A stretch of DNA of 64,000 nt from Candidatus Saccharimonadota bacterium. Its GTDB lineage: Bacteria; Patescibacteriota; Saccharimonadia; Saccharimonadales; UBA10212. Of the stretch, positions 39,501 to 45,697 are shown piece after piece. The notes under the pieces are model-generated. The model saw only the letters and a program-made list of their open reading frames with translations. It did no database searches and was not told the origin of the DNA. A program made the position numbers and the translations under genes. Every line of letters begins with the position of its first letter. The stretch's first letter is position 1. Where the stretch lies: NCBI GenBank assembly GCA_016176605.1, contig JACOWW010000005.1, positions 127 to 64,126 of the forward strand, in the 5' to 3' direction.

Positions 39501-39770
39501 TTAGACGTCTAAAAAAACTGTTACTCTATCGCTTTTGACATGCATGACGGCTTGGTTGACGTGCATGGAGAAGTCTTTTTGGCCGGCGCGGCGGACAGTG
39601 ACTTTGCCAGGTTTAAGCAGGCTTATGAAGTTTTTGTGGCGCGGCAGGATGTCGAACGGACCAGTGTCATTAGTGGCCGAAACGCTGTCTGCGGGTCCAT
39701 CGAAGTAGATGCTGAAAGGAGCATAGATTTTGACGCGCATTGTTTTTTGCGCTGTTTTGACGCTAGGCAT
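39501..39770 (-). CDS. atpC: F-ATPase epsilon-like subunit, beta-sandwich domain only
   Basis: It is 89 aa with the '[23 protein letters not shown]' pattern. It overlaps atpD by 8 nt and lacks the C-terminal helical hairpin. Confidence 0.7.
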
Positions 39771-41085
39771 TCATTGAGCCCTCCAAAATAGCCTCTACGC
39801 CGCGCAACGTTTCTTCTCGAGCGATGTAAATACCTTTCTTGCCCGTAATTTGTTCGGTTACGAACATGCTTTGACTGAAAAAGGAAATTAGCGCCCGGGC
39901 ACGGGCAAAATCCGCCCGGTCATCTGGTGATAGTTCATTTTCGCCGATGATGGCTATGATGCCCTTTAGCGATTCGTGTTTTTGCAAAATAGCCTGGACC
40001 TTCACGCTCAAATCGTAATGACGTTCGCCGACGATATCCAGGCTCAACAAAGATGACGTAGTCCTGATAAGGTCAACCGACGGGCGAATGCCTTCCTCGG
40101 CAACTCGGCGCGACAAGACTATAGTCCCATCAAGTTCGTGCTGGATCATTTGTACCGCCGGATCGGTCATGTCGTCGGCTGGGACGTAGATGGTTTGCAC
40201 GGCGGTGATCGAACCGTTTTCATTAGAACTCAAGCGGTCCTCAAACAACTTTATATCCGAAAATATGGTGGGCTCATAGCCGCCTTCACTAGGTATTTGC
40301 TGCAGGATTGTTGACAGCTCGTTCTTGGCCTGCACATATCGGTACATGTTGTCGGTGAAGAAAAGTATATCTTTTTTTTCACTGTCGCGGGCATATTCGG
40401 CGGCCGTCAGGCCGGCTAAAGCTACCAGCACCCGCTGAGCAGGATTTTGGTCCATCTGGCCAAAATACATCGAGGTGTTTTTTAGCAAATCGCGCTGTTT
40501 GAGCGTTTCATAAAGTTCGTGTCCCTCGCGGATGCGTTCGCCGATACCCGTAAAAAAACTCAAGGCTTCGCCGGATTTGGCTACGTTATGGATAAGTTCC
40601 ATTATCAGAACCGTTTTGCCTACACCGGCGCCACCGACGATGCCCATTTTATGACCTTTGACGAACGGCGTGAAAAAGTCTATGACCTTGACCCCCGTTT
40701 CCAAAAGTTCCGGCTTTTTTGCTTTAAATGACATACCCTGGACAGGTACCTGCCAGATATTTTTGTACTTCAATGTTTCTGCGGCAGGCAGAGGTAAACC
40801 GTCGAGTGGCCGGCCAAGGGCATCAAACACCCGGCCCATAACAGCTGACCCAACGGGTATTTCGATACTCCGGCCACTGCGCTGCACTGCCATGTTCTTT
40901 TGCAAAGTATGATCGTTTAGGATATTCAGGCAGACGGCAATATTGCCGCTGGCCAGGTGGTTGACCATTAAAGGCGTCCGATTTTGGTTGCCCACCAGCA
41001 AGATCTCGCCGATCTGGGGGCTGTCTTCGTCAAAGGCAACCAAAGTCACAAGTTCGCGGATAGAACGGATAACACCAGCACTCAC
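39763..41085 (-). CDS. atpD: F-ATPase beta subunit
   Basis: It has the P-loop 'GGAGVGKT', 'GIGERIREG' and an 'ENELSPDD' (DELSEED-like) motif. The GTG start at 41085 follows a GAAGGAG SD. Confidence 0.92.
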
Positions 41086-41104
41086 AACAAGTCTCCTTCG
41101 TCGG

Positions 41105-41190
41105 CAATGCTCAATGAACAAGTGTCAAGTGTCAATGAATAGTCAATGCTTAAATGATTCAATACATTAATACATTGCTTATTGCTGCAT
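41105..41190. repeat. Degenerate heptanucleotide tract in the atpG-atpD spacer
   Basis: It reads CAATGCT CAATGAA CAAGTGT CAAGTGT CAATGAA TAGTCAA TGCTTAA ATGATTC AATACAT TAATACA TTGCTTA TTGCTGC. Confidence 0.75.
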
Positions 41191-43699: not shown

Positions 43700-44238
43700 T
43701 ATTCTTCCACCGCTGCACCTGGCGCTATCTGGTTCAGGGCTGCGCCTTTTATAAGTTCGATTAAGTATGGCTGCTGTTTCTCAAAAGAGGCGCGCAGACT
43801 GAGGTCGAAGATTTTATTGGGCGTGCGCAGTATACAGCCGGCGGCGATAGCCGGCTGTAAGCCAATATCTAGCAGTACGTAGCGGTGGACATTGCCGCGC
43901 AGCCAAGAAAGTATAGCTTGCGTAACTTTGGGCGAAGGTTCGGCCGCGAAACTAATGTGCACCATCGGCGCCTGGTCACGGACATCAGTTAGTATTCGGG
44001 TGAGTTTTTGGCGATCGCTGGCTATTTTCAAATCGTAACTATTGCCAGCAGCGGTTTGAGCCAGCTCATTTGTCACTCTTAGCAGTGTGTTTTTTTGGCT
44101 GGCAGACAAACTGGTTTGACCTTTGAGCTTTATCAGTTCAGATTCAAGTAACTCCAGTTCGCGTAGTAGACTACTGATATCCGCTTTTCCGACAATTTCT
44201 GGCGGCAAATTGAACAATTTCTTGTTATTAAGAACCAC
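43699..44238 (-). CDS. atpH: F-ATPase delta (OSCP)-like subunit
   Basis: It holds the position between the b-like gene and atpA. The C-terminal 'VLLDIGLQPAIAAGCILRTPNKIFDLSLRASFEK' fits the OSCP C-domain pattern. Confidence 0.65.
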   Translation of the reverse strand: MVLNNKKLFNLPPEIVGKADISSLLRELELLESELIKLKGQTSLSASQKNTLLRVTNELAQTAAGNSYDLKIASDRQKLTRILTDVRDQAPMVHISFAAEPSPKVTQAILSWLRGNVHRYVLLDIGLQPAIAAGCILRTPNKIFDLSLRASFEKQQPYLIELIKGAALNQIAPGAAVEE

Positions 44239-44893
44239 GTTTTATATCCTCGATTATGTCAGCTTTATTATTTTCCAGTTCAGTCAAAATAAATTCCAGT
44301 TGGTCGGTCAAATCTATCTGGTTACCTATGGCTTGCATGACGTAGTGGTTGATAATGGCGGCCATTTGGGATTCAAAACGGGCGATGATTTGGTTGCGCT
44401 GGGCCTGGGCCTGGGTCTGCATTTGAGTCTCCATCAGCTGGCGCTGCTGCTCGATGGTAGTGACTGTTTTTTCAATTGAGTCCAGAGCGATTTGCTTGGC
44501 ATCAACTATTGATTGTTCGTATTTTTTAAACTCTTCTTGCAATGTACGGGTGATTTCCGCCCGCATATAATCGTTAAGCTGGGTAGTGGTTTGGCGTAGG
44601 TCCTGTTGTAGGAACATGGCGTTTTCGCCAATGATTTTTTCGAAGTGCAGCCGGCCGCGGTTGCGCAGCTCCTCGCGGAATTCATCATTAAAAATATGCT
44701 CAACGTCTTCTTTAGCACTGACTATGGTCTGGGGCTGCGCGTCTATAGGGAGTTTCTTAGCCTGTGATGTTGTCGGAGCGGGCGCAGCCGGTTTTTTGGC
44801 CCGAGGGTTCTTTACGCGCCAGTCGAAGTAAAGAACCACTGCTATTGCCAGCAGCGCCCCGCCTGTTATCATCAATACCCCACCGTTATTCAT
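44228..44893 (-). CDS. F-ATPase b-like stator stalk (N-terminal TM helix plus a long coiled coil)
   Basis: The call rests on architecture and operon position only. The helical region is rich in Gln, Glu and Lys. Confidence 0.5.
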   Translation of the reverse strand: MNNGGVLMITGGALLAIAVVLYFDWRVKNPRAKKPAAPAPTTSQAKKLPIDAQPQTIVSAKEDVEHIFNDEFREELRNRGRLHFEKIIGENAMFLQQDLRQTTTQLNDYMRAEITRTLQEEFKKYEQSIVDAKQIALDSIEKTVTTIEQQRQLMETQMQTQAQAQRNQIIARFESQMAAIINHYVMQAIGNQIDLTDQLEFILTELENNKADIIEDIKRGS

Positions 44894-45697
44894 CTATACC
44901 CTCAATAATAAATATATACCGAATAAGCCGCCGGCAAAAACGACCGTCGCGGCCACGATGACTTGTGCCAAATTCTGCATAATTAAGTGCTTGCTTAGCG
45001 GGTTGCGGCCGATGGATATCATGCCGCTGCGGACACCTACCCAAAGCAAGCCGAAAGCGATAGCCGCGGTTATGATAAAGATCAGCAGCGCTGAATAAAT
45101 CCTGGCCGCCGAAAGCGGTTTGCCGGCAATCGATTCGACAAATAGCCGAAGGGGAAGCGGTACGGCCGTACTCTCACGCAGCTGCGGGTTTCTGCCGGGA
45201 ATAATTTCGGCATTGATTTTACCAATCTTCGCGCCACGGTTGCCAGTGCCAATAACCCCTGTGCTGCCATCGAAATTTTCCGAGGACCGGCCGATTATGA
45301 ACGTCTGCCGGCTGGTAACCTTGGCTGCCACGCCGTCCGAGGAAGACATCGAAAGGTAATCGCCGGTTTTTATGGCACCGTTTTCGGTACTGGCTACTAC
45401 TGGATAGACACCGCCGGTGGCCACAAAGACTGTCCGACCCGGCTGCTCAACTGTCGCCGGCGCAGCCTTTTGTTCAATTGCTACACCGTAGATCCGGTTT
45501 GGGTCGTCCGCCGGCGCCAGTTCCACGATGGTGTTATCTGAAACGCTAAGTGCCACAACCCTGCCTGGTTCCACGTTGCCCTTGGCATAGAAACTACGGG
45601 CGATGGTATCCGCATAAGTTGGGGCTGCGAACAAGGCGGCCGAAACCGCCGCGAGTAAGCATAATTTGATAATTCGCCTCAAGGGCAGACCCTTCAT
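44894..45697 (-). CDS. Signal-peptide protein with a beta-rich extracytoplasmic domain and a C-terminal c-subunit-like TM hairpin (no carboxylate)
   Basis: It has the signal 'LCLLAAVSAALFAAPTYA'. The last ~75 aa form TM - 'IGRNP' loop - TM, resembling the c-subunit R(Q/N)P hairpin. It sits at the atpE position. Confidence 0.55.
   Translation of the reverse strand: MKGLPLRRIIKLCLLAAVSAALFAAPTYADTIARSFYAKGNVEPGRVVALSVSDNTIVELAPADDPNRIYGVAIEQKAAPATVEQPGRTVFVATGGVYPVVASTENGAIKTGDYLSMSSSDGVAAKVTSRQTFIIGRSSENFDGSTGVIGTGNRGAKIGKINAEIIPGRNPQLRESTAVPLPLRLFVESIAGKPLSAARIYSALLIFIITAAIAFGLLWVGVRSGMISIGRNPLSKHLIMQNLAQVIVAATVVFAGGLFGIYLLLRV

Follow-up and report, generated by a model that had tools for sequence, protein, structure and literature searches.

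Among described relatives of the F1Fo ATP synthase (atpBEFHAGDC), the F1-like X0 ATPases of mycoplasmas offer a close comparison for the locus analysed here. Their clusters of Types 2 and 3 are laid out, according to PMC3369863, as a protein with twelve transmembrane (TM) helices (12TM), a cytosolic protein, gamma, epsilon, a protein with a signal peptide and two TM helices (SP+2TM), alpha and beta, with no b or delta in that account, and mycoplasmas depend on F1-like X0 ATPases for gliding and for a system that cleaves antibodies outside the cell (PMC12994834, PMC11864180). The N-ATPase operons (atpDCQRBEFAG) are laterally mobile and occur as an additional F-type operon alongside the canonical one. 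Here we describe a different arrangement on a 64,000-nucleotide stretch of Candidatus Saccharimonadota DNA (GenBank assembly GCA_016176605.1, contig JACOWW010000005.1, positions 127 to 64,126; hereafter the window). Between 39501 and 45697, on the minus strand, seven genes read X - b-like - delta - alpha - gamma - beta - epsilon, an order and placement that a first-pass annotation had proposed and that the list of open reading frames (ORFs) bears out. The atpE slot is filled by X, a 267-aa protein in which a signal peptide is followed by an ectodomain (about 150 aa) and, at the C terminus, a helical hairpin, and the gene for subunit a is missing. We propose, with a probability of about 0.5, that the cluster encodes, separately from the canonical synthase, an F1-like motor that is driven by ATP and docks on an oligomer of X which is exposed at the surface and conducts no ions. 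A full-text literature search returned no published description of such a cluster in the candidate phyla radiation (CPR), whose genome papers report merely an "F-type ATPase" (e.g. PMC8672522), and within the literature searched the X-type F1 cluster is apparently undescribed.

The first-pass annotation underestimated the scope of the cluster: judged by sequence searches, it is CPR-wide and not confined to this contig. A scan of one genome per GTDB species, by motif and tblastn, found relatives of X in 364 species genomes, nearly all labelled Saccharibacteria, and all 86 annotated Saccharibacteria loci of this main clade read csd-X-b-delta-alpha-gamma-beta-epsilon (csd, cysteine desulfurase), with X directly upstream of b. 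Homologues of X formed 232 protein clusters in one search and at least 1443 in a second, almost all from Saccharibacteria/Patescibacteria, and the names of the homologues point to Candidatus Saccharibacteria as the source of the window. About 90 loci, with identities from 34 to 82%, keep the seven ORFs intact. A sister clade, found by a beta-based search and thus unbiased with respect to X, has the same gene order between other flanking genes; identity to the window proteins is 48-50% for beta and 24-31% for X, and the loop reads (I/V)GRNP(L/T)A. More distant Parcubacteria-like clusters encode a 250-aa protein with a signal peptide, a beta domain and a hairpin containing (G/S)RNPLAKKSI, followed by b-like, OSCP, alpha, gamma, beta and epsilon, and contain no PF00119 or PF00137 gene. 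Since the order recurs in 86/86 loci and in distant clades with different flanks, the arrangement is not a matter of chance. No full-length representative outside the family exceeds 47% identity to beta, and even the nearest "canonical-looking" betas of the representative library (P0122-type) sit in X-type clusters on Parcubacteria-like contigs. A neighbour-joining tree (no bootstrap) unites main-clade and sister-clade betas in a single clade, beside which the P0122/P0124-type betas branch; the family of the latter, as sampled in loci L099-L102, also lies in X-type clusters.

Some loci vary in gene content. Three JGI metagenome contigs (L092, L093 and L095) read b-delta-alpha-gamma-beta-epsilon without X, with beta 65% identical and the same metG-tatD-csd flank; about 108 nt (6329-6435 in L092) are all that separates csd from b. 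These loci nest inside the X-bearing main clade, and their X-less state looks like secondary loss or relocation. In a sister-clade locus, L097 (4189-8844), alpha-gamma-beta-epsilon come immediately after X, and the genes for b and delta, both kept in its relative L089, are missing. Among Parcubacteria-like loci, a GIY-YIG nuclease ORF is inserted between beta and epsilon in L100 (7186-7491), and a response regulator and a histidine kinase between alpha and gamma in L101 (5412-7141) and L102 (198-1987). X clusters with typical CPR synteny also occur in metagenome-assembled genomes labelled Limnocylindria (L027), Nevskiaceae (L068) and Humimicrobiaceae (Actinomycetota; L101), labels that most likely reflect mis-binning. 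Ca. Saccharimonas aalborgensis was not among the best 120 homologues of a "Saccharimonas sp." X. The cysteine desulfurase was considered as a member of the system and discarded, since its constant place upstream in the main clade has no counterpart in the sister and Parcubacteria-like loci, which lack it.

An AlphaFold2 (AF2) model of X, built on an alignment of 43 homologues (predicted local distance difference test, pLDDT, 89.9), comprises a signal-peptide helix (residues 6-23), a beta domain (33-169), a short juxtamembrane helix (181-191) and two hairpin helices (197-231 and 233-266), supporting the architecture of signal peptide, beta domain and TM-IGRNP-TM hairpin that had been read from the sequence alone. 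Residues A29 and D30 are conserved in the homologue alignment. The sole invariant stretch in that alignment, G230-R231-N232-P233-L234, lies between the two hydrophobic helices; among 90 homologues G-R-N-P is invariant, the L at +3 is found in 88/90 and a Q at +14 in 79/90. The loop, IGRNP in the window, persists as (G/S)RNP both in the sister clade and in Parcubacteria-like clusters. The ectodomain, by contrast, shows 34-67% identity. Neither hairpin helix of the window protein contains Asp or Glu, and there is no GxGxGxG, as had been noticed earlier. At R+20, the position of the c-subunit carboxylate, the 90 homologues have L, V, I, F or A, and the Asp or Glu residues found in the TM helices of six of them are at varying positions, never conserved. 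The signal peptide, the charge distribution and the hairpin together suggest a c-subunit-like topology with both termini outside and the loop in the cytoplasm, where we place it because the charge distribution is positive-inside.

Structure searches with Foldseek gave distinct relatives for the two parts of X. F-type c subunits are the top PDB fold match of the hairpin, which superposes on them with TMt values of 0.8-0.88 and a root mean square deviation (rmsd) of 1.2-1.6 A, as exemplified by 9itt_I (TM-score 0.88, rmsd 1.2 A over 67 residues). The ectodomain matched a chain of the Pam3 capsid (8hdt_G, E=6e-5) and other capsid chains (BB1, Sf11, T1 and FCWL1; E 8e-4 to 1.7e-2) in the PDB, and DUF2190, preneck-appendage and tail proteins in BFVD with E down to 5e-9. 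The Pfam model Phage_cement_2 scored 19.5 bits on X, under its gathering score of 24; one X homologue was labelled "DUF2190 family protein" by one source, and the NCBIfam models at E <= 1 gave no match except weak flavoprotein ones. The ectodomain thus has the fold of phage cement/appendage proteins (DUF2190/Phage_cement_2), from which it differs in scoring below the Pfam cut-off and in being secreted, hairpin-tethered and encoded within an ATPase operon rather than in a phage. In the ectodomain, at residues ~166-175 (45173-45200 region), X and its homologues share a conserved P-G-(K/R)-N-P, with N170 and P171 at 90% or above, which echoes the G-R-N-P loop.

Genes for subunits a and c were not found nearby. 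Searches of all six frames of the 64-kb window with hmmsearch and phmmer (--max), using E. coli AtpB and seven c sequences, yielded no a- or c-like ORF, in line with the earlier remark that atpB is missing from the operon. Canonical a or c genes are likewise lacking within +-10 kb in 86/86 main-clade loci, nothing exceeded the threshold in four X-bearing sister-clade and three X-bearing Parcubacteria-like loci, and Pfam detected no subunit a (PF00119) in loci L001-L006 and L099-L102. Nor does any conserved multi-TM stator candidate occur within +-10 kb in 80 clustered GTDB-derived main-clade loci.

The F1 part of the cluster appears catalytically intact. Pfam (E 1e-17 to 1e-66) and NCBIfam confirmed alpha, beta, gamma and epsilon. 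The catalytic residues of alpha and beta (P-loops, catalytic Glu and arginine finger) had been described as kept, and indeed they are present in the window and conserved in the family. Alpha has both the P-loop GDSKSGKT and the arginine finger SVTRVGG; in the family, GDxKxGK(S/T) is conserved and S-x-(S/T)-R-(V/I)-G is found in 74/88 alphas, while the betas contain GGAGVGKT in 76/78, GxGERxRE in 78/78 and Walker B in 75/78. This conservation of the catalytic motifs indicates that the F1 head is under strong purifying selection and, therefore, should bind and hydrolyse ATP. All subunits nevertheless score under the canonical NCBIfam cut-offs: alpha 388.5 vs 554 (NF009884) and 371.8 vs 484.45 (TIGR00962), beta 429.5 vs 462.85 (TIGR01039), gamma 68 vs 194.45, delta 23.2 vs 57.5 (TIGR01145) and epsilon 46 vs 67.25. 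The smaller sizes noted at first hold as well: alpha and beta are shorter than canonical, gamma, which ends in ...RRQLNVQ*, lacks about 17 C-terminal residues present in its orthologues (284-285 aa in L001/L002), and epsilon consists of the N-terminal beta-sandwich, which is all that PF02823 covers, without the regulatory C-terminal helices.

The delta family profile matches bovine OSCP (E=5.6e-6) and E. coli delta (E=3.9e-4), with similarity over the C-terminal domain, and PF00213 is matched by 36/38 delta-like members at E <= 0.1, the window delta alone falling below the cut-off; by these profile matches, delta is a real, divergent relative of delta/OSCP. The b-like protein matches no b subunit by sequence or profile in Pfam or among solved structures. 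Its single-sequence AF2 model (predicted TM-score, pTM, 0.37) shows a TM helix (12-28), a disordered linker, a helix of about 120 residues (70-191) and a further helix (195-218), and it is among the better-conserved proteins of the cluster, with 50-78% identity across the main clade. Its gene position, between X and delta, together with this predicted architecture, fits a peripheral-stalk protein.

Published inventories suggest that the X cluster encodes an additional F-type machine that is distinct from any canonical ATP synthase. For co-occurrence with a canonical operon, we relied on a published table of KEGG Orthology (KO) counts and a proteome table; a representative search with beta and a follow-up from P0122 reached no canonical Saccharibacteria operon. 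In the BlastKOALA counts of PMC12592800 Table S5, atpB, E, F, A, D, G and C are all single-copy in TM7x and RAAC3, and the complete genomes of Ca. Saccharimonas aalborgensis, GWC2_44_17 and Ca. Mycosynbacter amalyticus have one copy of atpB/E/F and two of atpA/D/G, so that alpha, beta and gamma have paralogues in these genomes. Five CAILAD01 genomes in the same table (four bins and one reference) have alpha, three of the five also beta, gamma and epsilon, and none has a, b or c. The proteome of M. amalyticus contains abundant alpha (55.3 kDa, QHN42722) and beta (50.2 kDa, QHN42726) of canonical size, which lie ~550 genes away from the pam pilus genes QHN43268-43274 (bioRxiv 10.64898/2026.03.03.709456). 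Because of this distance, the "ATP synthase components" adjacent to pam must be a different set; this second set fits the X cluster, the identity of its genes being putative.

Compared with the canonical F1Fo operon, the X cluster has the same order from the c slot on, homologous alpha, beta, gamma, epsilon and delta subunits, a b-like protein of stalk architecture and, in the c slot, a hairpin with the fold, topology and R-N-P loop of subunit c. It differs in having no a subunit gene, in the scores of all its subunits under the equivalog cut-offs, in its shorter alpha and beta and helix-less epsilon, in co-existing with a canonical operon in some complete genomes, and in X itself, which at 267 aa has a signal peptide and a large ectodomain, no carboxylate, no GxGxGxG and no PF00137 match. 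With the mycoplasma F1-like X0 clusters (PMC3369863 and PMC12994834) and the M. mobile gliding ATPase (PMC11864180), it shares an extra alpha/beta/gamma/epsilon set beside the genuine synthase, the lack of Fo a and c, a link to a cell-surface process, and an occurrence in genome-reduced, host-dependent bacteria. It also shares the architecture of the membrane partner (Protein 5 / MMCAP2_0577), which has a signal peptide and a C-terminal two-helix hairpin with uncharged TM segments, a likeness we draw from architecture. Unlike those clusters, it has another gene order, keeps b and delta, and contains neither the 12-TM protein nor the small cytosolic protein, and alpha and beta score well under the MSC_0619/MSC_0618 and MMOB1660/1670 cut-offs (250.3 vs 520; 403.8 vs 570; 333.6 vs 600; 346.4 vs 850). 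The comparison with mycoplasma X0 ATPases drawn in the first-pass annotation is therefore sound as an analogy and fails as family membership, and the X cluster likely arose independently. The resemblance to N-ATPases is confined to being a second F-type operon beside the canonical one: N-ATPases keep a and an ion-binding c, add AtpQ/AtpR and differ in gene order, the X cluster has no extra small membrane genes of the AtpQ/AtpR type, and scores on the N-ATPase models TIGR03305, TIGR03324, TIGR03323 and TIGR03166 are 400.3 vs 752, 316.4 vs 750.5, 22.2 vs 282 and 28.7 vs 100, respectively.

A possible surface target is suggested by the neighbourhood of the cluster. Behind epsilon, 54 loci carry a "tail-fibre-like" gene of the beta-helix/H-lectin kind in convergent orientation, then genes for a TM protein and for two or three secreted pilin-like paralogues; in L009 (15720-19720) these are a 334-aa bactofilin-like beta-helix and H-type lectin gene, a 227-aa single-TM protein and T/S/G-rich secreted paralogues of 256 and 430 aa. 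In L009 and the 53 other loci, this block probably corresponds to the operon for Pam pili described by Troman et al. 2026 (bioRxiv 10.64898/2026.03.03.709456), a preprint that takes the ATPase genes beside pam as ATP-production components and does not analyse them. The pilin-like neighbours gave no match to the solved Pam pilins in a search of PDB sequences, which leaves their identity with PamA/B/T unconfirmed by sequence. Genes upstream of metG in L005 were considered as a pilus operon and rejected, as they are not conserved.

Our current working model, that of an ATP-driven motor docked on X, would operate as follows. An alpha3beta3-gamma-epsilon head, held by the delta/b stalk, would dock on a membrane oligomer of X, a ring or similar assembly lying beneath the gamma/epsilon foot with its loop in contact with gamma and epsilon. 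ATP hydrolysis would turn or strain the X hairpins through gamma/epsilon and deliver force to the phage-decoration-like ectodomains on the outer face of the membrane, giving a cross-membrane mechanical drive for a cell-surface process that may be linked to pili. Given that there is no a subunit and no ion-binding carboxylate, the machine would neither use nor make an ion gradient in the known way. The first-pass annotation had already leaned towards an F1-like motor on a different membrane module rather than a proton-coupled synthase, and this fits every test that we ran. A more specific version, in which a CPR c-ring became an ion-independent rotor and a spinning X ring with an outer crown of decoration-like domains works on pili or on the host-contact surface, is conceivable, but we hold it tentatively.

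Several points weigh against the motor model. The Foldseek E-values of the X hairpin are just 0.6-1.5, and long helical hairpins in general tend to match c subunits in fold searches. Profile tests of sequence similarity to c were negative or weak: PF00137 matched neither X nor 26 hairpins at E <= 10, the full-length X family profile found no c subunit among PDB sequences, and hhalign of X hairpins against seven c subunits gave a probability of 0.27%, which rose to 12.8%, with the loop aligned in register, when the 90-hairpin alignment was used. We do not claim sequence homology; the hairpin, called c-like in the first-pass annotation, is so only in fold, topology, loop motif and gene position. 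The oligomerisation of X is something we infer, and with subunit a absent the b stalk lacks an obvious partner in the membrane. The variants without X (L092/93/95) or without b and delta (L097) have an intact F1, so some loci keep less than the complete rotor-stator set, and the window gamma has lost its last ~17 residues. The window contig holds no pilus-like genes, the order in the window and its nearest relatives being epsilon-mnmA-alaS, and the second alpha/beta/gamma set in the literature comes from KO counts, its equation with the X cluster being putative.

A rival reading is a tethered ATPase, in which X and b fix F1 to the membrane, X being an adaptor or receptor rather than a turning ring, and F1 energises the secretion, assembly or anchoring of surface filaments such as Pam-like pili, in the manner of export ATPases. 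The tail-fibre-like and pilin-like genes adjoining the cluster in 54 loci and the pam operon neighbour in the literature speak for such a role, as do the loci lacking b/delta (L097) or X (L092-95) and the want of a stator partner like subunit a. We nevertheless consider it unlikely: gamma and epsilon, known only as the shaft and foot of the rotor, are kept and conserved throughout, nearly all loci retain the delta/b stalk, which is needed only against torque, the X hairpin is of the same size as a c subunit, and no pilus block lies close to the cluster in the window or its nearest relatives. That ions are still moved, for example to maintain the membrane potential of fermentative CPR cells, by unconventional chemistry of the X hairpin (Gln at R+14, Arg at R-8) and a stator encoded elsewhere, seems improbable to us. 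The conservation of Q at R+14 in 79/90 homologues and of a full peripheral stalk would agree with it, as would the Parcubacteria-like loci, which show only an X-type cluster. However, the membrane interior of X offers no charged or strongly polar residue, Q+14 and R-8 lying near the cytoplasmic interface, and the 80 clustered main-clade loci provide no conserved multi-TM stator candidate within +-10 kb. To our knowledge, all rotary ATPases described so far need a ring carboxylate and a stator Arg. In the literature, the support for ion movement comes from the many CPR genomes in which an "F-type ATPase" is reported as the sole bioenergetic complex (PMC8672522).

Another idea is that the genes are the F1 and stalk of an ordinary ATP synthase with atpB and atpE elsewhere, X being an unrelated or accessory neighbour. 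The gene order does match atpFHAGDC, the window covers only ~64 kb of the genome and X-less variants exist, yet complete genomes with atpB/E/F carry two alpha/beta/gamma sets, a canonical-size set lies elsewhere in M. amalyticus, every subunit falls under the canonical cut-offs, beta reaches at most 47% identity with full-length representatives outside the family, and both the linkage of X and its invariant loop persist across clades with different flanks, which together make this explanation very improbable. The first-pass annotation had stated that if canonical atpB and atpE lay elsewhere and X showed no similarity to c, the position of X would be coincidental. This was too strict; although canonical atpB/atpE do seem to occur elsewhere in related complete genomes and X gave no significant profile match to c, the position of X is not coincidental, because X is kept beside the F1 genes throughout the family, including clades with different flanks. 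Finally, the truncated C terminus of the window gamma, the repeat-bearing spacers inserted between genes and the helix-less epsilon might be taken as signs of a decaying, functionless remnant of a duplicated atp operon. We find this scarcely credible, since the catalytic motifs are essentially invariant, the seven ORFs are intact in ~90 loci (34-82% identity), and X occurs in 364 GTDB species, its homologues forming at least 1443 protein clusters.

In metabolic reconstructions of CPR/Patescibacteria, an "F-type ATPase" is regularly counted as evidence of ATP synthesis or of proton motive force upkeep. Should a large share of these calls stem from a machine that lacks both a and an ion-binding c, those inferences need revisiting, above all for Parcubacteria-like genomes, in which the loci examined have only the X-type cluster, and for CAILAD01 Saccharimonadia, reported with alpha/beta/gamma/epsilon and no a/b/c. 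If the motor model is true, the recruitment of an F1 motor for surface work, known from the F1-like X0 ATPases of mycoplasmas, would have a second and far more widespread case, and the retention of the stalk and of a c-shaped hairpin would make it a cleaner system for asking how torque can serve without an ion channel. Should X indeed be a rotor, a third use of F-type motors would join ATP synthesis and ion pumping and be found in much of the bacterial tree. The proximity of a newly described CPR pilus system also gives a concrete hypothesis on how episymbiont surface structures are powered, for the test of which the cultured Ca. Mycosynbacter amalyticus is available.

The features of the locus are collected in Table 1. 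Upstream of the cluster lie the cysteine desulfurase and tatD named in the first-pass annotation and, in addition, metG; mnmA and alaS follow downstream. X and b abut, and the b/delta, delta/alpha and beta/epsilon pairs overlap. The beta ORF is listed as 39763-41121, but a GTG at 41085 preceded by a GGAG ribosome-binding site agrees with the N-termini of orthologues and is most likely the true start.

Table 1. Features of the X-type F1 cluster in the window (positions of the whole stretch)
Feature	Position	Strand	Description and basis
X	44894-45697	-	267 aa; membrane protein in the atpE slot; ORF list
X signal peptide	45611-45697	-	residues 1-29; cleavage ~TYA|D inferred from sequence
X extracytoplasmic beta domain	45173-45610	-	residues ~30-175; phage decoration/cement (DUF2190)-like fold; Foldseek
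X C-terminal helical hairpin	44897-45115	-	residues 195-267; c-subunit-like fold; AF2 and Foldseek
X cytoplasmic loop G230-R231-N232-P233	44999-45010	-	invariant in 90/90 homologues
b-like	44228-44893	-	221 aa; putative peripheral-stalk protein; position and architecture
delta/OSCP, divergent	43699-44238	-	179 aa; family profile
alpha	42257-43699	-	480 aa; PF00006 E=1.7e-66
alpha-gamma spacer	41998-42256	.	259 nt; orthologues without spacer; one copy of a ~70-nt repeat (42070-42165)
gamma	41191-41997	-	268 aa; PF00231 E=2.5e-24, profile positions 17-268 of 285
beta	39763-41085	-	440 aa from GTG at 41085; PF00006 E=9e-63
epsilon	39501-39770	-	89 aa, beta-sandwich only; PF02823 E=4.4e-17, profile positions 1-78 of 80

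Two spacers of the window, of 259 nt between alpha and gamma and of 105 nt between gamma and beta, are missing from orthologues: alpha and gamma overlap in L001/L002, and gamma and beta, separated in the window (41086-41200 region), overlap in orthologues. The AT-rich gamma-beta spacer precedes the beta start and carries repeated TTGACA-like hexamers; promoter and terminator scans gave counts not above those of shuffled sequences. The repeat of about 70 nt in the alpha-gamma spacer is intergenic and occurs at 42070-42165, 16477-16571, 38175-38268 (+) and 10375-10450 (-), with the conserved core ...CTTGAWG...TAATCTGATTGCAGACT...TCAGG...GCGGGGCAAGC. RNAalifold proposed a stem-loop with 3 compensatory pairs for this element, which matched no Rfam family, and other fragments of the alpha-gamma spacer match 16566-16645.

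Two further observations concern other parts of the window. The region 61421-62000 (+) matches the Rfam tmRNA model with 67 bits, extending over 580 nt vs the 374 positions of the model, without an ARAGORN call, and may be a tmRNA with large insertions. The alanyl-tRNA synthetase downstream of the cluster (36279-38168, minus strand) has just 629 aa, in keeping with 623-654 aa in related loci, the usual bacterial enzyme being considerably longer.

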